Source: Terriglobales bacterium (GTDB lineage: Bacteria; Acidobacteriota; Terriglobia; Terriglobales; SCQP01). From it: a stretch of 64,000 nt of DNA. The notes beneath the pieces are model-generated. The model did not search any database. It was given only the letters and a program-made list of their open reading frames with translations, and had not been told where the DNA came from. Below are positions 2,071 through 46,551 of this stretch, piece after piece. The first letter of the stretch is position 1. The number at the start of each line of letters is the position of its first letter. The position numbers were made by a program, and so were the translations under genes. The stretch spans positions 69,734-133,733 of the forward strand of contig JBOGKM010000086.1 of assembly GCA_050747745.1 (NCBI GenBank), given 5' to 3'.

Positions 2071-2086
2071 GGACACAACAACAGCT

Positions 2087-5656: not shown

Positions 5657-5787
5657 GGTGAGTTAAGTATGAAGCCGGTGGGACGGCAACGCGGGAGGGT
5701 GGCGAGATTGATTCCGGGGGGAAGCGCGGAAGGACGCGCCGGGTTACGATAGGCAAACTGGTCCGTTTGCGGACCGGAAAAAACGGC

Positions 5788-7059: not shown

Positions 7060-7065
7060 GGAGCT

Positions 7066-7593: not shown

Positions 7594-7605
7594 ACGGGCG
7601 GGGCG

Positions 7606-9216: not shown

Positions 9217-9227
9217 GCTTGCAGCAC

Positions 9228-9998: not shown

Positions 9999-10027
9999 GC
10001 CTGTTAGCGGTATTGCCAACGGCCTGA

Positions 10028-10561: not shown

Positions 10562-10600
10562 GCGCCGAGTTTAACAGCTTTGCGAGAACGAGCAGCCGTT

Positions 10601-14387: not shown

Positions 14388-14446
14388 GCGGGTCAGCTTG
14401 CTGCCGCCGCGGCTCCGGATGCGGCGCCTTCAGCGATAATTAAGGC

Positions 14447-28353: not shown

Positions 28354-29607
28354 TTACAAGCGTGACGCGCCCTGAGCGACCTTGCGAATCGCTTCACCGT
28401 AGGCGTGCATGAGCGCTTCCGGCTGGGCGTAGATCGGGAACTCGTCGTTGGTCAGGCAGAACGAGTTGGCGAACATGGCCACGGTGTTGGGGTAATTGTC
28501 CGCGCGGTCGCTGGGGTTGCGCGCCTGGATCATGGGGTGGGCGCACAGTGGCGCCGAACCCCACAGATCCACATCCACGCCCTCGGCGGCGAGCGCCCGC
28601 ATGAAGGCGTCGCGCAGGGCGGCGCCGCGCAGTTTGGTGTCGAGTTCCTCGGGTGCCAGCCTAATGCGGTACTTGTGGTAGACAGAAACGCAGTCCTTGG
28701 GGATATACGGCGCTTTCACGCCGGGCAGATCGCGCAAGTAGCCATCCAGGATGGCGGCGTTGTGCTGCCCCGTGGCGTTGACCTGCTTCAGCCGCGCGAG
28801 CTGGCTGCGGCCGAAGGCGCTGGGCAGCTCCTGCGTACGGTAATTCCAGGCGAGCAGGTGCTGAAATTCCATGGTGCGGTCGCTCGCGGGCAGAACTTCG
28901 CCGACTTGCTTGAGCCAATTGCCGCGGAAGTAAACTTCGTCCTCATTGGTGACCATGAAGCCGCCCTCGCCCACCGCGAAGTTCTTGGTGCCGTTGACGC
29001 TGAAGCCGGCGGCGGCGCCGAACGTACCGGCGGCGCGGCCCTGGTAGGTGGCGCCGGGCGCCTGGCAGGCATCCTCGGTTAGGATCAGGTTGTGTTTGCG
29101 GGCGATCGCCAGGATGGGACCGAAATCGGCGCACAGGCCGTGGATATCCACCACCATGAGGGCACGCGTGCGGGGCGTGATTTTGGCTTCGATCTGTGCG
29201 GGGTCGAGATTGAAGGTGCGTGGATCAATATCGACGAAGACGGGTTTGGCGCCCGCGTGGAGAATGGCCGCGGGCGTAGCCAGAAACGAAAATGCGGAAG
29301 TGATGACCTCGTCGCCGGATTCGACGCCGGCGGCGACCAGCGCCATATGCAGGCCGGCGGTGCCGCCGTTGACCGCGAGCGCATGGCGTACGCCGAGGAA
29401 GGCGGCGAACTCCTGTTCCAGCGCTGACTGTTCGGGCGCGTAGAGGCCTTCGGGGCGGGTCTGCGCCCATAGAATTTTGCGATCGATCACGCGCAACACC
29501 GCGGCGCGGTCGGCTTCGGTCACGATCGGCCAGGAAATTTTGGGCAAAGAGGCTGCCACCGCCGGCTCGCCGCCATGGACAGCCAGTTCCGTCACAAATG
29601 CTTTCAT
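28354..29607 (-). CDS. DegT/DnrJ/EryC1/StrS-family PLP aminotransferase
   Basis: 417-aa ORF. It has the family pattern DACQAPGATYQGRAAGTFGAAAGFSVNGTKNFAVGEGGFMVTN with the PLP lysine in FS-x-x-x-TKN. A GAGGA SD lies just upstream. Confidence 0.85.
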   Translation of the reverse strand: MKAFVTELAVHGGEPAVAASLPKISWPIVTEADRAAVLRVIDRKILWAQTRPEGLYAPEQSALEQEFAAFLGVRHALAVNGGTAGLHMALVAAGVESGDEVITSAFSFLATPAAILHAGAKPVFVDIDPRTFNLDPAQIEAKITPRTRALMVVDIHGLCADFGPILAIARKHNLILTEDACQAPGATYQGRAAGTFGAAAGFSVNGTKNFAVGEGGFMVTNEDEVYFRGNWLKQVGEVLPASDRTMEFQHLLAWNYRTQELPSAFGRSQLARLKQVNATGQHNAAILDGYLRDLPGVKAPYIPKDCVSVYHKYRIRLAPEELDTKLRGAALRDAFMRALAAEGVDVDLWGSAPLCAHPMIQARNPSDRADNYPNTVAMFANSFCLTNDEFPIYAQPEALMHAYGEAIRKVAQGASRL

Positions 29608-29629: not shown

Positions 29630-30967
29630 TTAATCGCCCCAGGCCTGTGCCCGGGCGTCAATGAGCCGCCGCAGCTTGCGTCCGCCGCTGAGCGTGCGGG
29701 GCGGATGGAAACGGAAATCAAACTCAAAAAATTTCTTGGTGTAGTAGCGCCAACAGTCGGGAAAGCGCTCCTGGATGTTGCGGAACAGTTGCTCCTGCAC
29801 CGCCTGCGCATCGCCGCCGGGCCGCAGTTCCATGTTGAATTCAATGCGGTCGTCGCGATCGCCGCGGCGTACGATGACCTGCCAGTCGTCGGTGATTTGA
29901 GGGATATCGCGCAGCATCTCCTCGAACCAGTAGGGGCTGATGTTGCCCATCGAGCAGTTGATGAGCTCATCGCTGCGGCCGACGATTTTGGCGATGCGCG
30001 GGGTGAACCGCAGCAGGCAGTTGCACGTGCCGTCCGTGGCCCAACGGGTGATGTCGGCGGAGCGGTAACGCAGCAGCGGCATGACGGTGCGGTTGAGGGT
30101 GGAATAGGTGAGCTCGCCGTAGCCTTCCTCGTTGGCGCTGCTGATTTCGCTCACCAGGCTCAGGTGGCTCAGATGATAACCACCTTTGTCGGGGCATTCG
30201 ATGCCGTTGCAGCCGAACGCCTCGGTCTGGCCATAGCTGAGATAGACTTTGGCGTTCCAAACCGATTCGATGTATTTACGGGTGCGCTCGCTCAGGTTCT
30301 CGCCGCCCAGCAGCAGAAACTTGACCGGCCAGACGCCGTCCTGTTCGGCGACCTCGGTCACCCGCACCAGGTGGGTGGGCACGCCCATGATCACTGTCGG
30401 TTTGTAGCCGCGGATGCGCTCGTAAAACTCGCGCGGCTCGACGAAGGCGCCGATGACGTGGAACGAACCCATGGCCTGCACCGTGTAATAGGCGGTAAAC
30501 GGAGCGTTCCAGAAGGAGTAATCGAAACCATCAGCGACCACGTCGTCTGGACGCAGGCCCAGGTTCCACATTCCTACCGCGCCGTCGCGGCCGTACTCCA
30601 TCATCTCGGCATAGGAGAAGTAGACGCGTTTGTTGACGCCGAGCGTGGTGCCGGTGGTTTCAAAGCCGAATTCGGGGCGGTCACAGAGAAAATCCTCAAT
30701 CGGCCGCTGGCGCAGGTCATCGGAGGTGGTGTAGAAATCGCCCAGATCGGCGTGGCTATGGACCTTGCTCCAGTCAATGCCGCACTCGCGGAATTTTTCC
30801 TGGTAGAACTTCGAGCGCTTCGCCAAATGGCTGACCAGATGGCGGAATTTGGCGTGCTGGAGGGTGTTAATGGTGCGGGGAGAAAGATGGCGGGCGATGC
30901 GCACCCGGCTGGAGGTGGAGCGCAGGAAATGATGATCAAAGAAGCCGAAGAGAGTATCGATGTTCAT
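29630..30967 (-). CDS. PaaK / coenzyme F390 synthetase-like adenylate-forming enzyme (copy 1)
   Basis: 445-aa ORF. Motifs: P-loop-like FETTGTTLGVNKR, YGQTEAFG, YRSADIT, GRSDELI and a C-terminal K in GGRKLRRLID. Its ATGA overlaps the upstream KS stop. It is a paralog of 39791-41203. Confidence 0.8.
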   Translation of the reverse strand: MNIDTLFGFFDHHFLRSTSSRVRIARHLSPRTINTLQHAKFRHLVSHLAKRSKFYQEKFRECGIDWSKVHSHADLGDFYTTSDDLRQRPIEDFLCDRPEFGFETTGTTLGVNKRVYFSYAEMMEYGRDGAVGMWNLGLRPDDVVADGFDYSFWNAPFTAYYTVQAMGSFHVIGAFVEPREFYERIRGYKPTVIMGVPTHLVRVTEVAEQDGVWPVKFLLLGGENLSERTRKYIESVWNAKVYLSYGQTEAFGCNGIECPDKGGYHLSHLSLVSEISSANEEGYGELTYSTLNRTVMPLLRYRSADITRWATDGTCNCLLRFTPRIAKIVGRSDELINCSMGNISPYWFEEMLRDIPQITDDWQVIVRRGDRDDRIEFNMELRPGGDAQAVQEQLFRNIQERFPDCWRYYTKKFFEFDFRFHPPRTLSGGRKLRRLIDARAQAWGD

Positions 30968-32226
30968 GGTTCACTTGCCGCGCGGCGCAGGATGAGGCTG
31001 GAGTTCTGGCCGCCAAAACCGAACCCGTTGGACATGGCGGTTGCCAGCCGCGCGTGCTGGCCGGCGCGGGTAATCAGCTGCAGCCGGCAGTCGGGGTCGG
31101 GATGAGCGTGGTTGAGATTGGGCGGAAGCAACTGCTCCTGCAGCGCGATGAGGCTGAAGACCGCCTCGACGGCAGAGGCGGCAATCAGCAGGTGGCCGGT
31201 CATGGCCTTAGTCGAGCTCACCGGGAGCTGATCGGTGCCGTCGCCCCAGATGTTCCAAATGGCGGCGGCCTCGGCCTGATCGTTGAGCACGGTGCCGGTG
31301 CCGTGGGCGTTGAGGTAGTCAATCTCGCGTGGCTCCAGGCCGGCGTCGGCCAGGGCAGCCTGGATGGCCAGCACTGCACCGCGGCCCTGGGGATGGCACT
31401 TGGTCAGTCCAAATGCATCCATGGAGCTGCCGTAGCCGGCCAGCTCGGCCAGCACGGTGGCGCCGCGGCGGCGGGCATGGTCGGCCGATTCCAGCACCAG
31501 CGCCGCGGCGCCCTCGCCCACCACAAAGCCGGAGCGCTTGCGGTCGAAGGGACGGCAGGCGGTGGCGGCGGGTTCGCGCGACAGCGCCGACAGCATCTCA
31601 TACTCGAGCATGCTGAGCGGATGCACCTGGGAATCGGTGCCGCCGACGATGACCACTTCCGCCTCGCCGCGTTCGATGAGGCGCTTGCCCATGCCGATGG
31701 CATCGTTGCCGCTGGCGCAAGCGGTGTAGCAGGAGTAGCGCGGTCCGGCGGCCTGCGCCTGCGCCGCCAGCCGTTCCAGCACGGCGCTGATGTCGTAGTA
31801 TTCCCGATGCTGCTCGAGCTCGGGGAAATGGCGCAGCAAATTGGCGGGATCGAGCTGTTCGACTCCCAAGGCGGTGGCATCCTGGGCGCAGCGCGCGGCG
31901 AGCGGTTCCAACTCGAGCGTGGCCTTGCCGATGGCGAACGAGACTGCGCGAGCGGGGTCGGGGCCTTCCGCCGGCGGCAGTTGCGCCGCCGCCATCGCTT
32001 CCGCGATCGCCAGCCGCGCCATCGCGTCCATGCGCGGGGCGCCCCGCGGGACCGCGGCGTCGCGCACCTCGCCGGCGCAACTGATGGGAAATCCCTGGGC
32101 AGGGAAGGCGGAAATGGGCCCAATGCCGTTGACGCCCTGCTCCAGCGCAGCCCGCGTGGCGGCCATGCCCCGGCCCAGCGGTGACACGATCCCCGCGCCA
32201 GTAATGACGCAAGCCGAGGCCGTCAC
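30964..32226 (-). CDS. Beta-ketoacyl-ACP synthase (FabF/KS-alpha type, catalytic)
   Basis: Cys-His-His triad motifs YTACASGNDAIG, YLNAHGTGT and KAMTGHLLIAASAVE. The N-terminus [18 protein letters not shown] starts at GTG 32226, which forms a GTGA overlap with the upstream stop. The ORF-track extension to 32553 is not supported. Confidence 0.85.
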   Translation of the reverse strand: MTASACVITGAGIVSPLGRGMAATRAALEQGVNGIGPISAFPAQGFPISCAGEVRDAAVPRGAPRMDAMARLAIAEAMAAAQLPPAEGPDPARAVSFAIGKATLELEPLAARCAQDATALGVEQLDPANLLRHFPELEQHREYYDISAVLERLAAQAQAAGPRYSCYTACASGNDAIGMGKRLIERGEAEVVIVGGTDSQVHPLSMLEYEMLSALSREPAATACRPFDRKRSGFVVGEGAAALVLESADHARRRGATVLAELAGYGSSMDAFGLTKCHPQGRGAVLAIQAALADAGLEPREIDYLNAHGTGTVLNDQAEAAAIWNIWGDGTDQLPVSSTKAMTGHLLIAASAVEAVFSLIALQEQLLPPNLNHAHPDPDCRLQLITRAGQHARLATAMSNGFGFGGQNSSLILRRAASEP

Positions 32227-33098
32227 CGGTGCGCCTCCAGCAGCGCCGGAGCGGCGACGGCGGTGCGGGCCAGCTCGGCCAGCTCGATGCAGCCTCCCCC
32301 AGCCAGGCGCAGCAGCGCCGCGATCAGTTCCGGCGCCGGTTCGAATCCGGTCGGAGCTGGGGGCAGCGCTGCCGAGCTGTAGCTGACTTCCGCCAATACC
32401 GTCGCGCCGCGCCGGTGCGCCCTCTGCCAATCTTCCAGCACCACGGCGCCGCTGATTTCCGGCCATTGCGTCGAGGTGTAGGACTGCTCGGGCGAGCTGG
32501 CGGACTGGGCCAACATGAGATCGGCGCGGCCTTGGGCCACCGTCCACCAGCATTCGCTCAGCGCCTGCATGCCCGCCCCAGCGCCGGAGGTAAACGAAAA
32601 GCCCGGCCCTTGCAGGCCCAGCAGCAGCGAGGTGTGGCCGACGGCCATGTTGGCCAGCAGCGCCAGACGGCGGAACGGATGCAACTCGCGCGCCCCCAGC
32701 TCGGCGAAGCGCGCCCAGCCATCGGGCCCGCAGCCCATGTGCGGCGCGACGGCGGCGAGAACGCGCAACAGGTCGGGGGTAACCGGGGAAATATCGGCCA
32801 GTGCCGTGGCCAAACCCGCTCGTTCCGGCGCCACGCCCATGGCTTGTACTCCGCCCTCGGCGGGCATGCCCGCCGCTTCCATGGCCATCACCGCCGCTGC
32901 GGTGACCAGTTGGAACGTGCGATGCATGGTGCGCAGGCGGCGGGGATTGCGGATGAAGGCGGCAGGATTAAAATCGGGCACCAGACCGGCTTGGCTGGAA
33001 TGGGAGGCGGCCCACTGCTGCAGCGCGGCCACACCCGTGCCGCCGGGGGAAAACGCGCCCAGGCCGGTGACAGCAACCCGGCGGAGAGGGGCGCTCAT
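32223..33098 (-). CDS. Truncated KS-like protein lacking the catalytic residues (chain-length-factor-like partner)
   Basis: 291-aa ORF with a KS-type N-terminus [15 protein letters not shown]. The active-site region reads [12 protein letters not shown], with no Cys at the canonical position. The His-containing C-terminal half is absent. ATGA overlaps occur at both ends. Confidence 0.7.
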
Positions 33099-33844
33099 GC
33101 GCGCAGTCCTCCGTCCACGTTGAGGATGTGGCCGGTGATGTAGGCGGCATCGGGGGAGAGCAAAAACGCCACCGCGGCGGCGACTTCGTCGGGATGGCCG
33201 TAGCGGCGGAGCGCGATGGCGGCCAAAATTTGTTCACCCGCCAGTGCCCGCACCTGGGCGCTCATTTCGGTTTCGATCATGCCCGGCGCAACCGCGTTTA
33301 CGGTGATGTTGCGCGGCGCCAGCTCTTGCGCCAGCGCCTTGGTCAGGGCGTTGACACCGCCCTTGGAGGCCGCGTAGTTCACTTGGCCGCGGTTGGGGCG
33401 ATCGCCGGAGCTGGAGGAAAGATTGACGATGCGTCCGTGGCGCTGACGCACCATGAGCTTGGCCGCGGCCTGGCAGCAATGAAACATGCCGCCGAGGTTG
33501 GTGGCCAGCACCTGGTTCCATTCCTGCTCGCCCATGCCCAGCAACAGGTTATCGCGCACAATGCCCGCGTTATTGATCAGGGCGTCGAGGCGGCCGAGTT
33601 TTTGGTGGGCGCCCGCGACCAGTTCGTGCGCGGCGGCGGCATCGGCCACGTCGCCGGCGAGGGCCCAGGCCAGCCCGCCGCGGGCGGTAATCTCCTCCAC
33701 CACGTGTTCGGCGGCCGTGGCGTCGGCCCGGTAGTTGATAGCCACGTGCGCGCCTTCGGCGGCGAGGCGCATGGCGATAGCGCGGCCGATGCCGCGGCTG
33801 GCGCCGGTGATCAGCACAACCTGACCTTGCAGACGGTCAGGCAC
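33095..33844 (-). CDS. 3-oxoacyl-ACP reductase (FabG-type SDR)
   Basis: [20 protein letters not shown] and S...YAASKGG (Y-x3-K) motifs. Three starts are possible: ATG 33922 (59-nt overlap), TTG 33871 and GTG 33844. GTG 33844 gives the typical FabG N-terminal length of about 249 aa. Confidence 0.8.
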
Positions 33845-33863
33845 GGGCGCGGGGGTGCTGCTT

Positions 33864-35162
33864 TCAGGCAAGACTGCGATCCACCAACAGCGAGGCCGTG
33901 TTGCCACCCAGCCCGCTGGCATTGAGCAGCAAGCGGCGGTAAGAGCCAGGGCGCGCCTCGCCGCGCACCAGGTCCAGTCCCAGGTCAGGATCGGGAAGTT
34001 CGCAATTCAAGATCGGCGGCACGAAGCCAGGCTCCGCCAGCGCCCCCAGAGCGGCGATCAGCTCCAGCGGGCCAGAGCCAGCCAAAAGATTGCCGCTCAA
34101 CGACTTAACGGCAGTTACCGGCGTATGCGGCACACGCTCGCCCAACAGGCGGGCTATGGCTTCGGCTTCGGCGCGGTCGCCAGCAGGCGTGGCCAGGCCA
34201 TTGGCATAGATGGCTCCGATCTGGCCGGGAGCGAGCCCGGCATCGTCTAAAGCTGCCTCCATGGCGCCCAGGTACTCCTCAGCGCTCTCGTTGGGTCGCT
34301 CCGTGAGGCCGCTGCTGGCATTGCCGTAGCCGCGAATTTCGCCGTAAATGCGCGCTCCGCGGGCGCGCGCGTGCTCGCGTTCCTCCAGCACCACGAAGGC
34401 GCCGCCTTCGGCGGCTACAAAGCCTGCGCGACTGCGGTCAAAGGGGCGGCTGGCGGAAGCTCCATTGCCATCGCCCATGTACAGCAAGCCGGTCGGTTCG
34501 AAGCTTTCCAGCCGCTCCTCGTCTAGCAGGGACTCGTAACCGCCCGCAACGGCCAGATCCACGCGCCCACTGCGGATGGCGTGGAACGCCTCCCCCACTG
34601 CCATGCTGCCTCCGGCGCCGCTCATGCAGATGTTGGCATTGGGCCCCTGCGCCCCCAGCCGCATGCTGACGAAATAGAGCACCAGGTTCGCCAGGCTCTT
34701 CAGCAGCCAGAGGGGATTAATGATGGGGATGCCTTCGGCGCCGAAGCGTTGCAGATCCAGGCCGCTGCCGCCGTAGGACAGTTCCAGGGCCGGCAGCAGT
34801 TCATCGCGATCGCCGGCGTGCCCGGGCGAGCCGACGTAGCTGCCGACCCGTTCGGGAGCCAGCCCGGCACGCCTCTCGTCCAGACCGGCATCCTGTACCG
34901 CCAGTTCCACCGCCGCCACGCCCAGACGCACCGGGCGGGTCATCAGCTTCAAGGCCTTGGCGTCCTTAATAAATTGCCGGGGTTGAAAATCGCGCACGGC
35001 GCCGCCCACGTGCGTGCGGTACGCCTCCAGCGACATGTGCGGCACAGTCCCGACGCCGCTCTGGCCGGCGCGCAGCGCCGCCCAGACCGCGGGAACGGAA
35101 TTGCCCAACGGCGACACCGTTCCGGCGCCGGTAATGACCGCCCGCCGGGGTTCAGGATGCAT
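33864..35162 (-). CDS. Full-length KS-like protein with degenerate active site (partner subunit)
   Basis: KS fold throughout ([15 protein letters not shown] ... GGNTASLLV). Both catalytic His are Asn ([12 protein letters not shown]; [11 protein letters not shown]). Ungapped spacing places Gly at the nucleophile position ([10 protein letters not shown]). ATG 35162 overlaps the upstream stop by 11 nt. Confidence 0.75.
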
Positions 35163-36450
35163 AGGCGCGCAAGACCAGGCTCCCATTGGAGCCGCCGAAA
35201 CCGAAGGAATTGGAGACCACGGTGCGCACCGTTTGCTCGCGGCCGTGATTGGGCACGTAGTCGAGGTCGCAGACCGGATCGGGGTGTTCGTAATTGATGG
35301 TCGGCGGGATAAAGCCGCGTCCGATCACCAGGGTCGAGATGATGGCTTCGATGGCGCCGGCCGCGTTGACCATGTGCCCGGTCATCGATTTGGTCGAGCT
35401 GATCGGAATTTTGGCGGCGTATTCCCCGAAGCAGCGCTTGATGGCCATGGTTTCGCTGGAATCGTTTTGCAGCGTCGAAGTGCCATGGGCGTTGATGTAG
35501 TCCACCTCGGCGGCAGCGATGCCGGCGTCGGCCAGGGCGGCCTGCATGGCCAGCATGGGACCCTGTCCGTCGGGCGGAGAATCGGTAATGCGGTAGGCGT
35601 TGATGGAGGCGCCAAAGCCAGCCAGTTCGGCATAGATACGGGCGCCGCGGCGGCGGGCGTGCTGTTCTTCTTCCAGCACCAGCATGGCGCCGCCCTCGGC
35701 GAGCACGAAGCCATCGCGCTCGCGGTCGAAGGGCCGGGAGGCTTGCTGGGGATGGTCGTTATTTTTCGACAGGGCACCCAGCAAAATGAATCCGGCGACC
35801 ATGGTCGGCTCCATCAGGCACTCGGCCCCGCCCGCGAGCATGACATCGGCTGCGCCGTTGCGGATGGTGTCAAGCGCGTAACCAAGGGCCTGGGAGCTGG
35901 AGGTGCAGGCGGTGGAAATGGTGGCCATGGGACCGCGCGCCTGCAATTCAGCCGCCAACACGTAGCCCAGCCCGTAGGGCGAGTAGCGCAAATACTCCCA
36001 ACTGGGAACCGCGGCCAGTACTTTGCGGCGCTCGCTCAAGCCGGGCGGACGCAGTTTGCGTTCGGCGAGTTCGGGCAGGAGACTGTCGCGGCGGCCTTCC
36101 GTGCCCAGGGCAATGCCCAGCCGTCTGGGATCCACCCCGGCAGCATCGCCCGGCTTCAGACCTGCATCCGCGAAAGCGGCACGGGCGGCGAACCAGCCGA
36201 AGGAGTTTTTGCGGTCCAGGGCTTCGGCGATAGGCGGCCGCGCCTGGGCGCGGGCATGCTCGGGATCGAAGCCTTTTACTTCACCGCCGATGCGTGTCTC
36301 AAACGTCGATGCATCGAATAGCGTGAGCGGACCGATGCCGCAGCGGCCGGCCCGCAGACCCTCCCAGGTGGACTCGTGCGTGTGCCCCAGCGGCGTAATG
36401 GCCCCCAGTCCAGTGATGACCACGCGGCGGCGATGGCCGTTGCCGTTCAT
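35152..36450 (-). CDS. Beta-ketoacyl-ACP synthase II (FabF type, catalytic)
   Basis: ISTACTSSSQALG, YINAHGTSTLQND and KSMTGHMVNAAGAIE. N-terminus MNGNGHRRRVVITGLGAITPLG at ATG 36450 forms an ATGA overlap with the dehydratase stop. Confidence 0.9.
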   Translation of the reverse strand: MNGNGHRRRVVITGLGAITPLGHTHESTWEGLRAGRCGIGPLTLFDASTFETRIGGEVKGFDPEHARAQARPPIAEALDRKNSFGWFAARAAFADAGLKPGDAAGVDPRRLGIALGTEGRRDSLLPELAERKLRPPGLSERRKVLAAVPSWEYLRYSPYGLGYVLAAELQARGPMATISTACTSSSQALGYALDTIRNGAADVMLAGGAECLMEPTMVAGFILLGALSKNNDHPQQASRPFDRERDGFVLAEGGAMLVLEEEQHARRRGARIYAELAGFGASINAYRITDSPPDGQGPMLAMQAALADAGIAAAEVDYINAHGTSTLQNDSSETMAIKRCFGEYAAKIPISSTKSMTGHMVNAAGAIEAIISTLVIGRGFIPPTINYEHPDPVCDLDYVPNHGREQTVRTVVSNSFGFGGSNGSLVLRAYAS

Positions 36451-36956
36451 GCCGGTTCTCCCGGGCGAGAGCCAATTTCCAAGCCCTGGAGCAGGCTTCG
36501 GTTCACCTGCTCCGCCCACAGGTCGAGTTGAGCCCGCGCGGCCGGCGGAATCACCTGGTTCTGCCCAGAGTCATAACCGAGCATCAATTCCGCTGAAGCC
36601 ACCGGTTTGCCAGCTACCTTGGCGGTGCAGCGGCAACGCCCGGCGCCATCCACTAGTCCCATCATTTCCGCACGCAGCTCAACAGTGTCCCCGGGGCGGA
36701 CAAAATGGCGGAAACGGGCGTTTTGGATGGTGAGGAGCACTGGCAGCACCTTTTCACCCCCCTCGGCAGCGACCGAGTAAGTAATCAGGCGTCCCGCCAG
36801 TTGCGCCATGGCTTCCACCAGCAGCACCCCGGGCACCACCGGGAAACCGGGGAAATGATCGTTGAAGTAATCCTCGCTGAGGGCGACACACTTATGCCCC
36901 ACTGCGTGCGAACCCGGCTGCAGTTCAGTGATCCGATCGAGGAGCAGATAGCGCAT
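36447..36956 (-). CDS. 3-hydroxyacyl-ACP dehydratase (FabZ/FabA hot-dog fold)
   Basis: From ATG 36956: MRYLLLDRITELQPG...AVGHKCVALSEDYFNDHFPGFPVVPGVLLVEAMAQLAG, the canonical FabZ active-site His region. Confidence 0.9.
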   Translation of the reverse strand: MRYLLLDRITELQPGSHAVGHKCVALSEDYFNDHFPGFPVVPGVLLVEAMAQLAGRLITYSVAAEGGEKVLPVLLTIQNARFRHFVRPGDTVELRAEMMGLVDGAGRCRCTAKVAGKPVASAELMLGYDSGQNQVIPPAARAQLDLWAEQVNRSLLQGLEIGSRPGEPA

Positions 36957-36958
36957 GC

Positions 36959-37444
36959 CTAGTGGACGGCAGCTTTTTCCGCCTCCAACTCGCCGATGCG
37001 CCACGCCACCAGCCGGGCAAAGGTCTCGGGCGTAAAGAGGGCGGGAATTTCCCTCGAGGTGAGGCCAACGTGCAGCTTGGCGGGGTTGACCTCAGGCATC
37101 AGAACGCGCAGCCGCTCCAGGGCGGCTGCGGTGAGCACGCCATTTTGCTGGAATTCGGCTTCGGTGAGCGAACCCTGGGTGGCGCGCTGAATGCCGCCGC
37201 GTGGGATCTTGATGCCGAAGGCGGACTCGAGCCGGAACAGCAGGTCGAGGAAATCCAGCGATTCGGCGTTGAGATCGTTCATGAGGCTGCTGGAGGGCTG
37301 GACTTCGCTTTCCTCCCGGCCCAAAACTTCGGCCACGGCGCTGCGCACCGTGCCCAGAATCTCGTCGTGCCGGCTAGCCAGCACACGATCGGCGGTTTCG
37401 CGAATCTTGACAACTTCCAAGGCACTGGCACTTGCTTCAGGCAT
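36959..37444 (-). CDS. Acyl carrier protein with an ~80-aa C-terminal extension
   Basis: ATG 37444 is preceded by an AAGGAG SD. The phosphopantetheine-site motif is LNAESLDFLDLLFRLESAFGIKI (DSL-type Ser). At 161 aa it is about twice normal ACP length. Confidence 0.75.
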   Translation of the reverse strand: MPEASASALEVVKIRETADRVLASRHDEILGTVRSAVAEVLGREESEVQPSSSLMNDLNAESLDFLDLLFRLESAFGIKIPRGGIQRATQGSLTEAEFQQNGVLTAAALERLRVLMPEVNPAKLHVGLTSREIPALFTPETFARLVAWRIGELEAEKAAVH

Positions 37445-37476: not shown

Positions 37477-38262
37477 CTAGCTGACGCTCAGCAGCGATAA
37501 GCCGCCGTCGGCGATGATAGTCTGTCCGTAAATCCAATTGGCTGCGTCCGAACACAAAAAGGCCGCGACTTCGGCCAGATCCTCGGGCGTGCCGATGCGC
37601 CCGGCAGGTGAAATCTTCTCACACGCTTCCTTCATTTGGGCGTAATTGGCGAACAATTTGAGGGCATCGGTATCGATCGGTCCGCCCGAGAGCGTGTTGC
37701 AGTTGATACCCTCCTTGCCTAGCTCCACGGCCATATAGCGGGTCAGGGCCTCGGTGGCGGCTTTGGTGACGCCGATGGAGGCGTAGCCGGGAATGTAGTA
37801 CTGGGAACCGAGGCTGGAGAGGCTCAAAATTTTCCCCCGGCGGCCTTTCATCAGCGGCACTGCCTTTTGGGTACTGAGCAGCAGAGCGTTGGTATTGCCA
37901 TTGATCGTGTGATCCCAGCCCGCCAGGCGCTGGCGCAGGACGGGGCCGTAGGTGCCAACGTCAATGGCGTTATTCACGAAGATGTCGAGCACGCCGAAAT
38001 GCTCCTGCACCGCGCCGAACAACTTGGCGATGCCCTCGGCGCTGGTCGCGTCGGCGTTGACGGTTTCCGCTCGCCGGCCCAGGGCGCGAATTTCCTCCGC
38101 CAGTTTCGCCGCCGCATCTCCGCTGGTGACAAAGTTGATCACCACGTCGGCGCCGCCCTGCGCCAAGCGCAGTGCGATGGCGCGGCCGATGCCGCGCGCC
38201 GCGCCCGTGATGAGCGCAACTTTCCCACTTAGTCCGTTACTTTCCCCCATTGCCTCCCCCAC
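37477..38262 (-). CDS. fabL: Enoyl-ACP reductase, FabL-type SDR
   Basis: Close by-eye match to B. subtilis FabL blocks: LSSLGSQYYIPGYASIGVTKAATEALTRYMAVEL (Y-x6-K), LSGGPIDTDALKLF and GQTIIADGGLSLLS. The cofactor motif is [13 protein letters not shown]. The start is GTG 38262 or ATG 38250. Confidence 0.8.
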   Translation of the reverse strand: MGEAMGESNGLSGKVALITGAARGIGRAIALRLAQGGADVVINFVTSGDAAAKLAEEIRALGRRAETVNADATSAEGIAKLFGAVQEHFGVLDIFVNNAIDVGTYGPVLRQRLAGWDHTINGNTNALLLSTQKAVPLMKGRRGKILSLSSLGSQYYIPGYASIGVTKAATEALTRYMAVELGKEGINCNTLSGGPIDTDALKLFANYAQMKEACEKISPAGRIGTPEDLAEVAAFLCSDAANWIYGQTIIADGGLSLLSVS

Positions 38263-38291: not shown

Positions 38292-39587
38292 CTACGACCG
38301 TACCGCCTGGGCCACCGGCTGCAGTTTGGGCGCCAGACGATGGAAGGCCTGCTGCAGATGCTGATACTGCGCTCCCAAGTCATGCTCGGGACGGCCATGC
38401 AGCGTCTGCGGGCTCTTGAAGTAGAAGCCCAGCCACTCCAGCGCGCCCTTTTCTCCCGCCCGCTGCGCCGCCGCGCTTAGCAGCGCCAGATCGAGCAGCA
38501 GCGGAGCCGCCAGAATGCTATCCCGGCAGAGAAAGTTGATCTTGATCTGCATGGGGTAACCCAGCCATCCGATTATGTCGATGTTGTCCCAGCTTTCCTT
38601 GTTGTCGCCGCGGGGCGGGTAGTAGTTGATCTTCACCTGGTGCGAGAGCTTGCCGTATAGCTCCGGGTAGCATTCTGGCTGCAGGATGTGATTCAGCGCC
38701 GACAGCTTGGATTCCTCCTTGGTGCGGAAGGCGGCGGGATCGTCCAGCGTGGCGCCATCGCCATTGCCCAAAATGTTGGTCGAAAACCACCCCGCCAGAC
38801 CCAGCATGCGCTGCTTGATGCCGGGCGCGAGGATGGTTTTCAGCAGCGTCTGGCCGGTCTTGAGATCCTTGCCGCTTACCGGGCAGCCCTGGGCTTCTGC
38901 CAGTTCGATCATCACCGGCATATCCACCGTCAGGGTAGGTGTGGCGTTCACAAAGCCGCACTTTTCCTTCAGCGCCGCATAGGCATAGACCATGCTGGGT
39001 GCGATGGTGGGTTCGTTCTCCTTCATCGCGGTCTCAAAAATCTTGAGGCTCTGATGGGCTGGGCCGATGGGCAGGAAAACTTCAGTGGAACCGCACCACA
39101 TTACCACCACCTGCTCCAGCCGGTGCTGCGTCTTAAAGGCGCGGATGTCTTCGCGCAGCGCTTCCGCCTGCTCGAACTTGTTGGTTTGCGCCTTGAGGTG
39201 GCGCCCTTCGCTGCGGCGCAGATACTGCGGATCGTGGATGCCGGGCAGCGACTTAATGGCCTCGAGCGCGGGGCGCACTGCGGCCAACTGCATCGGTTCC
39301 AGAACCGCTGCCGCCACCGCCATCTCATAGGCGTTGCCGGCGTGGATATCCCAGCCGCCGAACACCAGATCTTCCAGAGCCGTCAGTTGCAGATACTCGC
39401 TCAGGCTGACGCTTTTTCGTGCGCCCGCAGGCGTAATTTGCGCCAACTGCGTCAGCGACCCGAACGGCCGTGCCGAGCCCTGGCGGATGGCCTCGACGCC
39501 CGCAATCAGCGTCGTCGAGATGGCGCCCATGCCGACCAGCATTACTCCCAGACGGGACGAACCTGCATTCCTCGTAGTAGTACTCAT
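38292..39587 (-). CDS. ino1: myo-Inositol-1-phosphate synthase family enzyme
   Basis: ATG 39587 has a GGGGAGGG SD. Blocks match archaeal/bacterial MIPS: VMLVGMGAISTTLIAGVEAIRQG, MVYAYAALKEKCGFVNATP, GKDLKTGQTLLKTILAPG...AGWFSTNILGNGDG, ILAAPLLLDLALL and FYFKSP. Confidence 0.85.
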   Translation of the reverse strand: MSTTTRNAGSSRLGVMLVGMGAISTTLIAGVEAIRQGSARPFGSLTQLAQITPAGARKSVSLSEYLQLTALEDLVFGGWDIHAGNAYEMAVAAAVLEPMQLAAVRPALEAIKSLPGIHDPQYLRRSEGRHLKAQTNKFEQAEALREDIRAFKTQHRLEQVVVMWCGSTEVFLPIGPAHQSLKIFETAMKENEPTIAPSMVYAYAALKEKCGFVNATPTLTVDMPVMIELAEAQGCPVSGKDLKTGQTLLKTILAPGIKQRMLGLAGWFSTNILGNGDGATLDDPAAFRTKEESKLSALNHILQPECYPELYGKLSHQVKINYYPPRGDNKESWDNIDIIGWLGYPMQIKINFLCRDSILAAPLLLDLALLSAAAQRAGEKGALEWLGFYFKSPQTLHGRPEHDLGAQYQHLQQAFHRLAPKLQPVAQAVRS

Positions 39588-39790
39588 GCTTAGCCCTCCC
39601 CTTCTTTTTTTACGCAACCGCCGCGTCCGGCTAACGCCGGCTCCGTTGGGCGGCCAGGAGCTTTGCTCCCGCAGCTTGCGAACAACATGCCCGCAAGCCC
39701 TGATTTTGGGAAACTGCCAATTAATCGTCCGTTAAAAAATGATTAAACAGATTTAACCGTGAAATCGAACCCGTTGCCCTAGAGAACTGG
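39588..39790 (-). promoter_or_regulatory. AT-rich, hairpin-rich leader / internal promoter region ahead of the MIPS gene
   Basis: This is the only sizeable gap in the operon. An AT-rich island at ~39715-39770 contains the palindrome TTAAATCTGTTTAA. Three perfect stem-loops follow on the transcribed strand: 39674-39698 (7-bp stem), 39657-39669 (5 bp) and 39627-39640 (5 bp). An A-run and the SD come next. Confidence 0.35.
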
Positions 39791-41203
39791 CTAGAGACGC
39801 GCATGCTCCGGGCGCGGTAGTGCTTCTTTCGCCATCCTCTCGTCCACGACGCGGCGGAGCTTGTGGCGGCGGGAATCGCCGGAGTCGCGAAGCGCCCCAT
39901 GCGGCATCCAGCGAAGCTGCAGTTCAAACAAACCCATTTGCAGGTTCTTCTGGTAGTAGGGAAAAATTTCAGCGAAACGCTGGCGGAGACGGGCTTCGCG
40001 TTCGAGCAAGCTGGCGCGAGGATCGGCAGCCTCGCCATCCCGCAGCTCCAGCCGGGCTTCAATCAGGTCGCGGGATTCTGGCTGGAGCACGGCCACTTGC
40101 CATTCGCCGATGCCGGCATCCTCCTCAAGCCAGGTTTCGAAAATCCAGGGGCTGATCATGCCCATGCCGCAGGAGATGATTTCATCGCCGCGGCCCTGAA
40201 TACGATCAATGCGCCGCATTTTCTGCAGGATGCAGCCGCAAGGTTCGTCCAGAAAGCGGGTGATGTCGTTGGAGCGGTAACGGATCAGCGGCATCACCTT
40301 GCGGGTGATGGTGCTGAAAACCAGCTCGCCGAAGCCAGCCTGGTTGGGGTGGAGAATTTCGAAGATAAAGTTGGGTTCGTTGAGGTGATAGCCCTTTTGC
40401 GCGGGGCATTCAATGGCGCTGGCGCCCAGCGATTCGGTTTGGCCGTAGGCTTGATAGACTTTCGTGTTCCAGACGCCTTCGATCCATTTGCGGGTGCGCT
40501 CGCTCATGTTCTCGCTGCCGGCCAGAATGAACTTCACCGGCCAGGCGCCTTGGCGTTCAGCGATTTCCGTCAAGCTCACCAGCCAGGAGGTGTCCACCAC
40601 CATCACGTTGAACTCGTAATCGCGGACGCGGCGGTAGAACTCGGAGGGCTCGAGTTTGGAGGCGATCATGTGGAAACAGCCGACGGCGTTGAGCGAGTGC
40701 AGGAGGCTGATGCCCGCGTTCCAGAAGGCGTAATCGAAAGCGTCCACGACGCGGTCCTCGGGCCGCAGGCCGAGGTTCCACAACCCCACGGCGCCTTCGA
40801 AGCCGATGTCGTGGACTTCCTCGTTGGAAAAGTAGAGGCGCTTGTTGCGGGCGGTAGTGCCCGTGGTTTCAAAACCGGCTTGGGGCGGAGCGCACAAGAA
40901 CTCGCGCGTATCGCGCTCCCGCAGGTCGGCGGAAGTGGTGTAGAAATCGCCCAGGCCCTCGGGGCGTCGAATGCGGGAAATATCCAAACCCAACTCCGCG
41001 AAGCGCTGCCGATAGAAGGGGCTGTGAGCGTTGACACGTTCCAGGGTGGTCTGGAATTCGGCCAACTGCACGCGCTCGATCCAACTGCGCGGTGCGCGCT
41101 GGGCCAACTTGGCGCGCCGCGGCACACTGGGGCCGAGAAATAGTTTCTCCAGCAGCGTGGGAACTTGGTCGAGCATAGGCAACGGCGCCGTGCGCGCAGG
41201 CAC
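39791..41203 (-). CDS. PaaK / coenzyme F390 synthetase-like adenylate-forming enzyme (copy 2)
   Basis: 470-aa ORF with FETTGTTARNKR, YGQTESLG, YRSNDIT, GRGDEII and a C-terminal RRHKLRRVVD. It is collinear with copy 1 along its whole length. Confidence 0.8.
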   Translation of the reverse strand: MPARTAPLPMLDQVPTLLEKLFLGPSVPRRAKLAQRAPRSWIERVQLAEFQTTLERVNAHSPFYRQRFAELGLDISRIRRPEGLGDFYTTSADLRERDTREFLCAPPQAGFETTGTTARNKRLYFSNEEVHDIGFEGAVGLWNLGLRPEDRVVDAFDYAFWNAGISLLHSLNAVGCFHMIASKLEPSEFYRRVRDYEFNVMVVDTSWLVSLTEIAERQGAWPVKFILAGSENMSERTRKWIEGVWNTKVYQAYGQTESLGASAIECPAQKGYHLNEPNFIFEILHPNQAGFGELVFSTITRKVMPLIRYRSNDITRFLDEPCGCILQKMRRIDRIQGRGDEIISCGMGMISPWIFETWLEEDAGIGEWQVAVLQPESRDLIEARLELRDGEAADPRASLLEREARLRQRFAEIFPYYQKNLQMGLFELQLRWMPHGALRDSGDSRRHKLRRVVDERMAKEALPRPEHARL

Positions 41204-41256
41204 GACGCCTTCATCATATCTCCAGACGCTGCGAACGCCAACGGGCGTACGGCCGC

Positions 41257-43932: not shown

Positions 43933-46551
43933 ATGTCTGACTTGGACCATGCCGCGCCGGCGCTGCACGCCTGGTGGCCCGCCACGGAGCCGCAACTGCG
44001 GGCCGACTTGGTGGCGGCCGCCGAAACCGATGCTGGACTGGCGAATCGGCTGCTGCGCTACACCGCCCAAAAATTGAACGTGCGCGAGAGCTGGCTGCGG
44101 CGCCAGACGGGAGGGTGGCAGGCCCGCGCCGTCCGGCTCCCGGCGCTGCCGGAGAGCCTGGCAAGCGAGTTGGCGGCACATTTTCTGCGGGAACGGCACC
44201 GCCCCATGCTCGCCGCCTTCCTGGACAGCCTGGGCATCGCAAGCAATTTCGGTTTTCTGGACCACCACCCTCCGCCGCCGGAACCAGAGCGGCTGGGCAA
44301 GGCGGTGCATTCCCTGCTGGAACGGTATCCGGACGGGGTCGTGCGGCTGTATCTGCTGGCACTGTACTGGCAGAGCGAGGCATGGGCGGGACTGGCGCCG
44401 TGGCTGAGCGCGCCCCCAACCTCTGCGGACGCGCCCGTGCCGGCTGCGGCGCCCGCGCCCGAGCCCACCGGAGGCGAACAGCTTTCGCCGCTCGACAAGG
44501 TGTTGACGCTGGCAATCGTGGCCAGCGTGCAGGGAATCGAGGGGGCTCTGAGCGCCGAGGAGATGGACGACATCGTCGACGAAGTGGTCCACCTCAACCT
44601 GGCGCGGCACCGCAGCTACTTCCATTTGGGCCATCTGCATGCCCTCCGTCATCAGCCGCTGGCCGCGACCCTGGCGGGCGGGAATCCCGACCGCCGGCTC
44701 TGGTATCTCACCGGCGCGTTCGTCGGCTACGCCCGGGAGTGCAACTGGGATGCGATTTTGGCCATGCTCGACGCCGAGGATCTGTTGCCACTGGGCCAAG
44801 TGTGCGATGCGCGTGCCCTGCAAGCCGGTCCGCACATTCTGGCCGCGATGATCGAGCGCGGCCAGGCCGCCCGCATCACCTCGTTTTTCCGTCCCGGGGT
44901 GCTGCTGGCCTGCGGCGGCGTGCATCAGGTTTTTGCCTGCGCCCGCCAGCTGTTTCAGGACCAACGTTTGCAGGAAGCCGACAAACTGCTGGAGCTGGTG
45001 CTGCTGGCCTGCGGCGAGGGATTGCCCGACACGGAGTTGGAGACCATGGCGCTGCGGCTGCGCGCCCACTGCATGCAGTGGCGCGGCGACTTCTCCGGCG
45101 CCCGCCTGCACCTGCAGGCGCTGCTCGAGGACAGTAGCACCCACGATCGCGCCGGCATTCTGACCGATCTGGCCATGGGGCGGGCGGGGTTGCGGCGCCT
45201 GGCGGAGGTTGAGGTCCCGGCGGTTCGTGAAAGCGCGGCCGCGTTACGGCGGAATCTGGAAGACATCCGGGAGCTGCTGCTGGAGGCGGCGCGCGCGCCG
45301 GGCCGTCAGGGGCATGCCCACTACTGCCTGGGCGTGCTGGCGCTGCTGCAGGAGCAACATCGGGAGGCCGTTTTGCATCTCGAGCTGGCGCTGGCCGAGT
45401 TCCAGCGCGGCGATCGCCTCTACCGCGCCTTCCAGTTGGAAGAGCGCTGCTCGTTTTATCTGGGGGTGGCGCTGCTCGGCGATTTAGATGCAGCCCGGGT
45501 CAGCTATGCGCTGGAGCGGATCGAATCTGGTCTGCGCGGCGGCCTGCGACCGCCGCCAGCCCTGCTGCTAACCGCCGCCGAGGGACTGGACGCGATTGAC
45601 CGCCAGTCGGGCCTGCAAAACCTGGCGGAGCTGGTGGCCGAGACGCTCGGCGAAGAGGCACTGGACTCCCTTGTCGTTCCCGGGCGCAGCATGTGCCTGC
45701 CGGTGCTGAAGCGTATCCACCGGCGCGCCCTCGACGGCGCCCGGCCAGCACAGGAGCGCATGCGCGACCTGCTACGGGTTGCCCGCGCCGCGCCCCAGGT
45801 GCGGGGGGCGGCCGGGCTGCAAGCCGAGGCCCTCGATGGGCTGCAAACCCTGTCGCGCGGTCTCCCGCACTCGGCCGCGGCCGATGAATTTCTGGATTTC
45901 CTTGAGGATCAGAAGGCGGCTGCCTACGATCCGGCATGGAAAAACACCGATGCGCTCGCCGCCGCTGCGCTGCTGCGCGAATGCCGCGGCGAACTCGATC
46001 GCGCGGCAGGCTTGCTGGAAGCATTGGCGCAGGCGCTGCTCAGCCAGAACGTGTACGGTGCCGAGCACGAGGCCCTGGATATCGCGGAACGGATCGAAGC
46101 CTACGGCGCCGGGCGCGATACCACGCCCATCCGTAGCCGCCTGCACGCCGGTTCCGCTCAGCCGCCGGCCTCGCCCGTGCGCAAGACACGGCCGGCGTCC
46201 ATCGCCGTCATCGGCGGAGACGAGGGGCTCGCGGGGATGGAGGAACAAATCCGAACTCAGGTCGGCAAACTCGATGCCGCAATAACACTGGAATTGATTC
46301 ACACCGATTGGTCCAGCAATGGCGGCGAGCAGTTCGATCGCCTCCGGTCCTCGTTGGCAACCTTCGACGCCATCGTAGTCATGCGCCTCATCCGGACGCA
46401 CCTCGGCCGCATGTTGCGGGCCGGGCATCCGCGCTGGATCGGGTGCAGCGGCTGCAGCGCCAGCTCGATTGTGCGCGCCGTCCTGCTCGCCGCCGAGCGC
46501 AGCCGCGAAAAAGCGCCCGCGCGGGCCCGCGCGCGCGCCGCTGGCCGATGA
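43933..46551 (+). CDS. Large helical-repeat (TPR-like) protein with DUF2325-like C-terminal domain
   Basis: 872-aa ORF with strong G/C third-position bias and Leu/Ala/Glu/Arg-rich helical repeats; no NTPase or nuclease motif was seen. The last ~100 aa (SIAVIGGDEG...FDAIVVMRLIRTHLGRML...CSGCSASSIVRAVL) resemble my recollection of the DUF2325 pattern (IGG ... D-x-V ... H ... SSS). Confidence 0.65.
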   Translation: MSDLDHAAPALHAWWPATEPQLRADLVAAAETDAGLANRLLRYTAQKLNVRESWLRRQTGGWQARAVRLPALPESLASELAAHFLRERHRPMLAAFLDSLGIASNFGFLDHHPPPPEPERLGKAVHSLLERYPDGVVRLYLLALYWQSEAWAGLAPWLSAPPTSADAPVPAAAPAPEPTGGEQLSPLDKVLTLAIVASVQGIEGALSAEEMDDIVDEVVHLNLARHRSYFHLGHLHALRHQPLAATLAGGNPDRRLWYLTGAFVGYARECNWDAILAMLDAEDLLPLGQVCDARALQAGPHILAAMIERGQAARITSFFRPGVLLACGGVHQVFACARQLFQDQRLQEADKLLELVLLACGEGLPDTELETMALRLRAHCMQWRGDFSGARLHLQALLEDSSTHDRAGILTDLAMGRAGLRRLAEVEVPAVRESAAALRRNLEDIRELLLEAARAPGRQGHAHYCLGVLALLQEQHREAVLHLELALAEFQRGDRLYRAFQLEERCSFYLGVALLGDLDAARVSYALERIESGLRGGLRPPPALLLTAAEGLDAIDRQSGLQNLAELVAETLGEEALDSLVVPGRSMCLPVLKRIHRRALDGARPAQERMRDLLRVARAAPQVRGAAGLQAEALDGLQTLSRGLPHSAAADEFLDFLEDQKAAAYDPAWKNTDALAAAALLRECRGELDRAAGLLEALAQALLSQNVYGAEHEALDIAERIEAYGAGRDTTPIRSRLHAGSAQPPASPVRKTRPASIAVIGGDEGLAGMEEQIRTQVGKLDAAITLELIHTDWSSNGGEQFDRLRSSLATFDAIVVMRLIRTHLGRMLRAGHPRWIGCSGCSASSIVRAVLLAAERSREKAPARARARAAGR

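Follow-up and report, generated by a model that had tools for sequence, protein, structure and literature searches.

Why does a gene for inositol phosphate synthesis stand inside an operon that resembles a fatty acid synthase (FAS)? The question is raised by a 64,000-nucleotide stretch of DNA (the window; contig JBOGKM010000086.1, positions 69,734 to 133,733, assembly GCA_050747745.1; GC content about 65%) from a metagenome-assembled genome (MAG) of a Terriglobales bacterium (Acidobacteriota). Positions 38292-39587 of its minus strand encode a myo-inositol-1-phosphate (inositol-3-phosphate) synthase (MIPS). Inositol synthesis in bacteria is usually tied to phosphatidylinositol, to mycothiol or to actinomycete antibiotics of the aminoglycoside type. 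Here, MIPS is the second of 13 co-oriented minus-strand genes (41203 to 27590). As a first-pass annotation made from the sequence alone had described, it is flanked by an adenylating enzyme, which is a PaaK-like ligase (A1, 39791-41203), and by an enoyl-ACP reductase, which is of the FabL type (ER, 37477-38262). The same annotation pointed out how uncommon this context is for MIPS, and we found it conserved in every close orthologue. On balance, we favour the reading that MIPS supplies the ring of an aminocyclitol head group, and that a chain made by a dedicated type II FAS or polyketide synthase (PKS) is attached to this group. The key to this reading is a link that the first-pass annotation had not drawn, between MIPS and an aminotransferase of the DegT family encoded at 28354-29607 in the same operon; it is because this aminotransferase is linked to MIPS that we read the product as an aminocyclitol.

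The MIPS open reading frame spans 38292-39617 (minus strand). The well-placed ATG at 39587 is preceded by GGGGAGGG and gives a 431-aa protein identical to MGH9487603.1 (NCBI, 'inositol-3-phosphate synthase [Terriglobales bacterium]'). Both Pfam domains of the family were found, NAD_binding_5 (PF07994; E 2.4e-81, 274 bits, cut-off 25) and Inos-1-P_synth (PF01658; E 3.8e-31, 108 bits, cut-off 27). The closest solved structure, 7nwr (E 2.2e-139, residues 10-423 aligned), is that of BT_1526, a characterised MIPS feeding inositol lipids in Bacteroides thetaiotaomicron (PMC9246714), and the structures of the yeast, human and A. fulgidus enzymes match at E 1e-39 to 1e-53. An alignment with 69 other bacterial MIPS has 161 columns that are near-invariant in them; 135 of these are retained in the window protein, among them nearly all the conserved Lys and Asp columns (K240, D241, K243, K250, N271, D277, K290, K294, D328, K330, D356 and D366 are all kept). 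The assignment, already called strong in the first-pass annotation, is sound because of the two domains, the alignment with BT_1526 and the retained columns. By its sequence the protein is a canonical, ordinary member of the family, predicted to turn glucose-6-phosphate into inositol-3-phosphate. We did not find a second MIPS in the 64-kb window.

How constant is the setting of this gene? Genomes were scanned as one genome per GTDB species, and the 80 loci retained are the top 80 MIPS matches. The close relatives (n=15), whose architecture we call type I, are the 11 of these loci in which MIPS is 72-89% identical to that of the window, plus four obtained by exact look-ups. All 15 keep, as far as each contig reaches, the order MIPS, ER, acyl carrier protein (ACP), 3-hydroxyacyl-ACP dehydratase (DH), ketosynthase (KS1), a KS-like chain-length factor (CLF2), 3-ketoacyl-ACP reductase (KR), a short protein with only the KS N-domain (KSN3), a second ketosynthase (KS4), a second PaaK-like ligase (A2) and DegT. 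Within Terriglobales, MIPS holds its place and the genes keep their order over a range of MIPS identity from 89% to 69-72%, and the case that had been named as arguing for fortuitous insertion, orthologous operons lacking MIPS, was not encountered among the type I operons. Among the matches listed, the 69 loci whose MIPS is 53-58% identical (Bacteroidota, Ignavibacteriota and others) carry not one of these genes. A further 68 loci came from metagenomes scanned with the A2 family as seed; 15 of the metagenome loci have at least 3 kb on either side of the ligase and MIPS is present in 12 of them, one of the other three being a truncated locus. MIPS is a fixed, dedicated part of a conserved operon, not a chance insertion.

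More distant loci show the same enzymes in other arrangements. In type II (L085-087, L104, L110, L112 and L117), where the A2 homologues are about 50% identical, one arm runs KS-CLF-KR-CLF-KS-DH, an oppositely oriented hydrolase of the metallo-beta-lactamase (MBL) fold, and then ACP-ER-MIPS; the divergent arm consists of ligase, DegT, a zinc-dependent alcohol dehydrogenase (Zn-ADH) and an inositol monophosphatase (IMPase). The distant loci come from soil metagenomes and, for one of type II, from a Betaproteobacteria MAG (GCA_050257855.1). The type II Zn-ADH scores 478 bits, against a cut-off of 450, on the model of IolM (scyllo-inosose 3-dehydrogenase, NF041097), and the last gene of the arm is SuhB-like (215 bits, PF00459); the IMPase is found in cis in L085-087, L110, L111 and L117. 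At the end of the type II cluster, a 545-aa radical SAM protein without a type I counterpart follows the last KS (L085/L086, 1-288). Type III (L129, L131, L137, L138 and L143) has no FAS genes at all: a patatin-like lipase and the ligase stand on one strand, a Gfo/Idh/MocA dehydrogenase and DegT on the other, and MIPS again on the first. In L129 this mini-cluster (3836-10552) adjoins an RND efflux system (OEP, AcrB). No CDP-alcohol transferase (CDP-OH_P_transf) gene is present in any type I, II or III locus.

The association of MIPS, ligase and DegT is thus kept across three architectures and two phyla. Because type III retains both DegT and the ligase together with MIPS and a dehydrogenase, and does so without FAS genes, these two enzymes are tied to the cyclitol. 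No other evidence speaks as strongly for amination of the ring, and for the ligase acting with it, as the recurrence of this trio with interchangeable dehydrogenases. The MIPS proteins themselves follow the same division. A neighbour-joining tree (200 bootstraps) sets each of the cluster-linked MIPS groups, and the other group, apart by a 100% split, with types I and II as sisters in 66% of replicates, and the cluster-linked clades are separate from relatives linked to CDP-alcohol transferases. One such relative, outside the clade and 58% identical (L158), directly follows a CDP-OH_P_transf gene, the canonical setting.

The aminotransferase, a pyridoxal phosphate enzyme of the DegT/DnrJ/EryC1/StrS family (28354-29607, minus strand; Pfam 3.4e-84), is proposed to act on an inosose. 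Its matches among solved structures are 8gyh (1.8e-70), on which a literature search found nothing, scyllo-inositol transaminase 7b0d (6.6e-50) and 2-deoxy-scyllo-inosose aminotransferase 5w70 (4e-44). Next to it lies A2 (29630-30967, minus strand), a PaaK-like adenylate-forming ligase with the Pfam domains AMP-binding and AMP-binding_C_2, whose best structural match is PaaK 4r1l (5e-32) and whose P-loop TTGT and C-terminal Lys431 are invariant in 12 homologues. A2 adjoins DegT in type I and type II clusters and lies within 1.1 kb of it in type III, and for this reason it is our candidate for the coupling ligase. There are precedents for ligases of the PaaK fold that make an ester or amide without using CoA (NatL2 and ClxA; PMC12519233). 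The family to which A2 belongs also carries a set of invariant cysteines (C258, C315-x-C317 and C338 in A2 numbering) that could form a metal site.

The first gene of the operon, A1 (39791-41203, minus strand; Pfam AMP-binding), is a paralogue of A2 with about 46-49% identity, and its best NCBIfam matches, the DVU_1553 family, PaaK and FlxY, are all under cut-off. We know of no feature like the invariant cysteine set of this ligase family in PaaK. A1 is found upstream of MIPS in most type I loci. In L003 it is absent, its place being taken by an unrelated methyltransferase and a TetR regulator, and in L134 an orthologue with 73% identity (9944-11296) stands beside TPR-GlmU genes, as it does in the window, with no MIPS/FAS operon after it. 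Because A1 occurs there on its own, it is a less certain member than A2, and it may belong to the GlmU-TPR neighbourhood rather than strictly to the cluster.

The genes between MIPS and A2, all on the minus strand, encode the chain-building enzymes. ER (37477-38262, with a start at 38262 or 38250) is a short-chain dehydrogenase/reductase (SDR) with FabL as its best NCBIfam match (284.5 bits, cut-off 328; next family 198) and with the enoyl-reductase motif Y-x6-K, read as GYASIGVTK. An SDR beside MIPS might be taken for the missing inositol dehydrogenase; we rejected this candidate, because the protein is FabL-like, carries Y-x6-K and tracks the ACP/FAS genes rather than MIPS: in loci of sufficient length, it occurs where these genes do, and type III, which has no FAS genes, lacks it. 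With a FabL-type ER in the operon, a reduced chain is probable. ACP (36959-37444, 161 aa; Pfam PP-binding, serine motif ESLD) has orthologues of 151-163 aa. Its length is roughly double that of ordinary ACPs; some 70 aa beyond the PP-binding domain form a conserved C-terminal extension that the ACPs of type II clusters (151-161 aa) share. DH (36447-36956), whose start overlaps the ACP stop, is FabZ/ApeI-like (Pfam FabA; NCBIfam FabZ 117 bits) and has orthologues carrying the ApeI-like domain PF22818.

Four proteins of the ketosynthase fold follow, with the KR among them. KS1 (35152-36450; Pfam ketoacyl-synt N and C domains, FabF-like 448 bits) is of the active type, with Cys-His-His present as TACTSS, NAHGT and TGH when motifs are read from the translation, and its full-length partner CLF2 (33864-35186), recognised from Pfam and the same motifs, lacks the catalytic residues, having Gly in place of the Cys and Asn in place of each His. 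The FabG-type KR (33095-33871, where starts at 33922, 33871 or 33844 may be read) carries Y-x3-K and matches the NCBIfam models 3oxo_ACP_reduc (290 bits) and FlxB (254 bits). KSN3 (32223-33098, 291 aa), in which only the Pfam ketoacyl-synt domain was found and which has no Cys, is kept (40-72% identity) wherever a type I locus extends to this point, and type II has a full-length CLF-like gene in its stead; it appears to be a second subunit of the chain-length-factor kind. KS4 (30964-32226, with a GTG start at 32226 that overlaps the KSN3 stop; Pfam, NCBIfam) is a second active-type ketosynthase, and its orthologues have 404-420 aa. Discrete KS, KR, DH, ER and ACP, that is, the set of a type II FAS or a highly reducing type II PKS, are all present according to Pfam, NCBIfam and motifs. 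The operon is without FabD and without a phosphopantetheinyl transferase; in L003 an ACPS gene is present after ACP.

The operon is tightly packed: the junctions from ACP to A2 overlap, the others down to the last gene, a methyltransferase, measure at most 30 nt, and the largest gap (203 nt) is that between A1 and MIPS. A sigma-70-like promoter match (TTGGCG-17-TATGAT, 41213-41241, minus strand) lies in the divergent intergenic region upstream of A1. In a scan for promoters and terminators the number of matches in the region was not above chance, and it is only the position of this one that is suggestive. An Rfam scan detected no riboswitch or RNA element near the operon.

If MIPS provides the ring, where are the enzymes that would carry it from inositol phosphate to inosose? 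Pfam analysis of the operon proteins detected no CDP-alcohol transferase, no inositol monophosphatase and no Gfo/Idh-type dehydrogenase, in agreement with the first-pass annotation, which had concluded that either the phosphate is used directly or the missing steps are encoded elsewhere. The second possibility is now favoured and the first fits less well, given the IolM-type ADH and IMPase that distant clusters hold in cis and a candidate dehydrogenase within the window itself. This candidate, an IolM-type Zn-dependent cyclitol (scyllo-inosose 3-) dehydrogenase at 2087-3256 (plus strand), scores 463.7 bits on NF041097, above the cut-off of 450, and is 46% identical to the in-cluster ADH of L085. 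It is preceded by a class I/II aminotransferase (874-2070, plus strand; Pfam Aminotran_1_2, 1.2e-59), whose link to the pathway is uncertain and which has weak counterparts (27-28%) adjoining the ADH in L104, L106 and L112, and by an MBL-fold hydrolase (65-877, plus strand; Pfam Lactamase_B), a possible thioesterase that was recovered from the window by tblastn with the type II MBL of L085 (33% identity, E 1e-35).

The whole trio, which forms an operon at 65-3256, is conserved in the closest long-contig relative, GCA_004299485.1 (L157). Because the ADH is distant from the operon, or on another contig, its link to the cluster rests on homology to the type II in-cluster enzymes. Outside Terriglobales, identity to the window ADH is 49% or lower, and at least two of these relatives (P0317 and P0292) were judged to be type II in-cluster ADHs. 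We infer that the trio and the operon are the parts of a split cluster. A Zn-ADH located 4 kb downstream of DegT in L156 was set aside as a candidate for the same step, being 28% identical to the IolM-type ADH and not an orthologue. The only CDP-alcohol transferase in the window (14444-15028), about 23 kb from MIPS as had been stated before, was likewise rejected as a member of the system: it is PgsA-like (91 bits), with 25.9 bits on PIPSynth against a cut-off of 170.

From these genes we infer the substrates, the order of the steps, the coupling and the nature of the product as follows. MIPS would cyclise glucose-6-phosphate to inositol-3-phosphate, and a monophosphatase, encoded in cis only in the distant versions of the cluster and not in the window, would strip the phosphate. 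The ring would then be oxidised to an inosose, for which the IolM-type ADH is the candidate, and DegT would aminate the inosose to an inosamine. Meanwhile, the two KS/CLF pairs, KR, DH and ER would assemble an acyl chain, largely reduced, on the ACP of the cluster, and a hydrolase, for which the MBL protein is a candidate as a thioesterase, would free the acid. The PaaK-like ligase would adenylate this acid and most likely N-acylate the inosamine, giving an amide, and in this lineage the methyltransferase encoded at the end of the operon may decorate the product.

Several observations weigh against this scheme. All carriers are MAGs or metagenome contigs. In L102, L125, L150 and L152, which are short contigs, ER lies directly beside the ligase with no MIPS between them. 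The operon has no thioesterase, acyltransferase or condensation enzyme, and A1 and A2 are far nearer to PaaK CoA ligases (5e-32) than to the amide or ester ligases NatL2 and AjiA1 (about 1e-7); they could equally load a starter acid onto ACP. DegT is under every NCBIfam cut-off and scores an uncharacterised DegT-family entry and perosamine synthases above scyllo-inositol transaminase. The candidate dehydrogenase lies 35 kb from the operon, and in GCA_004299485.1 it is on another contig than the MIPS operon; and a tblastn search with the L085 IMPase found no inositol monophosphatase in the 64 kb.

Could inositol phosphate instead go directly into an inositol phospholipid, by way of phosphatidylinositol (PI), phosphatidylinositol phosphate (PIP) or CDP-inositol, with MIPS placed among FAS genes for co-regulated supply and the transferases encoded elsewhere? 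The relationship of the enzyme to BT_1526, a feeder of inositol lipids (PMC9246714), its 58% identity to enzymes beside CDP-alcohol transferases and the lack of a phosphatase in the operon would all suit such a use. It is difficult, however, to reconcile with a CDP-alcohol transferase that is the sole one in the window, PgsA-like and 23 kb away, with the lack of such a gene in any locus of the three types, or with the constant company of DegT and the ligase, and the cyclitol dehydrogenases and IMPase that co-occur with MIPS would destroy the very phosphate that PIP synthesis needs. We therefore think this use unlikely. That a housekeeping MIPS landed in the operon by chance and without functional link is effectively excluded: it is true that this is the only close MIPS in the 11 species-representative carrier MAGs, with no second match among the top 80, but the gene order is conserved across Terriglobales, it reappears in rearranged form at 53-58% MIPS identity in other lineages, and the cluster-linked MIPS form separate, fully supported clades.

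A third alternative retains the cyclitol and changes its role. Following the logic of aryl polyenes and flexirubins, it could be converted to a ring-bearing carboxylic acid, activated by the PaaK-like ligase as a starter and extended by the KS/CLF pairs. A1 and A2 are indeed members of the PaaK/FlxY family, whose substrates are aryl and alicyclic acids, and the ApeI-like DH and the KS/CLF organisation resemble those of aryl polyene synthases, while an obvious enzyme for chain release or coupling is not seen in the operon. Yet neither inositol nor inosamine has a carboxyl group and the type I operon holds no carboxylating or C-C-forming enzyme; type III keeps ligase, DegT, dehydrogenase and MIPS without any ACP or KS; and the FabL-type reductase is a feature that polyene systems do not share. 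This role seems to us improbable. Less likely still, in our estimate, is a protein of the MIPS fold that uses another sugar phosphate or releases another cyclitol, such as an inosose phosphate intermediate or a non-inositol ring. The family includes Ari2 (6k96), a synthase of a five-membered cyclitol phosphate. The window protein differs from the 69 other bacterial MIPS at near-invariant columns (K317Q, R276G, R159Q, D372A and N218T), and A116G, A216T, N218T/S and F242L are common to all three cluster-linked types; at position 317, types I and II have Gln whereas type III has Arg, and the NGAPNL motif of other MIPS reads NATPTL in type I. These substitutions may be inherited from an ancestor or may reflect an adaptation of function. 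On the other side stand the match to the characterised MIPS at E 2e-139 as against a partial one to Ari2 (E 6.2e-18, residues 198-421), the retention of 135 of 161 columns with almost all conserved Lys and Asp, and partners from inositol-specific families (IolM, SuhB-like IMPase, Gfo/Idh/MocA). The doubt expressed in the first-pass annotation as to the ring product is weakened by this comparison and by these partners. We thus return to an aminocyclitol head group joined to a separately built chain as the preferred reading.

Set against described systems, the ring-forming part has its nearest parallel in hygromycin A of Streptomyces hygroscopicus, when the two are likened by the roles described for the enzymes and not by sequence. 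The proposed aminocyclitol route of that antibiotic uses Hyg18 (MIPS), Hyg25 (phosphatase), Hyg17 (a myo-inositol dehydrogenase of the Gfo/Idh/MocA type), Hyg8 (aminotransferase) and Hyg6 (methyltransferase; PMC10949010). The same ring logic is obtained when types I-III are combined, and a MIPS paired with a DegT/StrS-family aminotransferase in one cluster, as seen in all three types, is the part of such an inosamine cassette found here. Gfo/Idh/MocA dehydrogenases occur only in type III, types I and II having the IolM-type Zn-ADH; unlike in the hygromycin A cluster, phosphatase and dehydrogenase are not in the window operon, and the hosts are Acidobacteriota and Betaproteobacteria. In hygromycin A the aminocyclitol ends up joined by an amide bond to an acid, and this acid, a unit of the cinnamate type, is a product of the same gene cluster, whereas the acid of the window cluster would come from a complete type II FAS-like set.

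The chain-building part is like the aryl polyene and flexirubin PKSs (ApeO/ApeC, ApeR, ApeI/ApeP, ApeQ, ApeH; FlxY, FlxB) in having discrete KSs with Cys-less CLFs, one of them short, an ApeI-like DH, a FabG-type KR (FlxB, 254 bits) and a PaaK/FlxY-like adenylating enzyme, all Flx-protein matches of the operon being under the NCBIfam cut-offs. It differs from the aryl polyene systems by its FabL-type ER and by lacking an aryl-acid-forming enzyme, an LPLAT acyltransferase, a glycosyltransferase, a thioesterase and MMPL/LolA export genes. With the Bacteroides inositol lipid cluster BT_1522-BT_1526 the window shares MIPS, BT_1526 being its closest solved relative; compared with that cluster and with the mycobacterial type of PIP pathway, the window MIPS has no adjoining PIP synthase, PIP phosphatase, NTP transferase/HAD or sphingolipid genes, and their place is taken by the FAS-like, ligase and aminotransferase genes. 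The ADHs of the window (464 bits) and of type II (478 bits) both exceed the equivalog cut-off of 450 for IolM of Thermotoga maritima (NF041097). That enzyme is catabolic, whereas the context of the window-type ADH is biosynthetic (DegT, MIPS, IMPase), with no iolG, iolN or iolO neighbours among the genes examined. The cluster does not have the make-up of an inositol-phospholipid pathway or of the aryl polyene synthases, and its MIPS is nearer to the canonical enzyme than to Ari2. It resembles the aminocyclitol branch of hygromycin A fused to a type II synthase that is aryl-polyene-like and fully reducing.

What makes the finding of interest is not the MIPS gene, which alone is ordinary, but the conserved system that surrounds it, in which MIPS is hard-wired into a FAS-like operon of Terriglobales, a dominant and mostly uncultured soil lineage, with a rearranged form in Betaproteobacteria. 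If our reading is true, it leads to an aminocyclitol conjugate in dominant soil bacteria, a new class of lipid or natural product with an aminocyclitol head group that might serve as a membrane or signalling molecule and possibly as a soil biomarker. With 13.6 kb for the operon and 3.2 kb for the helper locus, the cluster is small enough to be amenable to heterologous expression. No paper returned by our literature searches describes such a cluster; they gave generic surveys of biosynthetic gene clusters and the paper on the hygromycin A dehydrogenase.

A wider proposal, which we put forward tentatively, is that these loci belong to an undescribed family of modular clusters, each consisting of a dedicated FAS, a PaaK-like ligase and a head-group module. 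Those of the uncultured soil Terriglobales and Betaproteobacteria might then make N-acyl-inosamines, or 'aminocyclitol lipids', as a new class of bacterial amphiphile, and the module could be exchangeable: MIPS, DegT, dehydrogenase and IMPase here, and other enzymes in a Blastocatellia locus (L160, the same as L119; 1-12120). The latter has KS-KS-DH, a radical SAM protein, a PaaK-like ligase and an MBL protein but no MIPS or DegT. Its polar module, which is of a sugar type, comprises a glycosyltransferase like monogalactosyldiacylglycerol (MGDG) synthase, a polysaccharide deacetylase, a HAD protein, a class III aminotransferase and an ABC transporter, which is consistent with a modular head-group role for the MIPS module.

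The edges of the cluster are less constant. The methyltransferase (MT, 27590-28348, minus strand), a class I SAM-dependent enzyme (Pfam Methyltransf_12/25), starts 5 nt past the DegT stop in the window and is absent after DegT in L088, L093, L094, L097 and L156. In the first four of these loci DegT is followed directly by the orthologue of the AAA gene that lies at 23382-24449 in the window (AAA_2/ClpB-like), and in L156 by a PIN/RHH pair. The segment 24884-28348 (minus strand), which holds MT and a duplicated permease of the ADOP family between DegT and the AAA gene, looks like a lineage-specific insertion; a second ADOP permease is encoded at 3260-5656. MT had been considered as a conserved Hyg6-like step and was rejected as part of the core, as other type I loci lack it and the methyltransferase of L003 is not related to it. 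The permease at 24884-27295, considered as an exporter, was rejected as a core component, since other loci run from DegT directly to the AAA gene. Upstream of the operon, the GlmU/TPR genes include a true GlmU (511 bits) and are syntenic neighbours for which we found no evidence of pathway membership. Downstream of GlmU, at 43933-46551 (plus strand), lies an 872-aa open reading frame with good coding statistics and no Pfam match.

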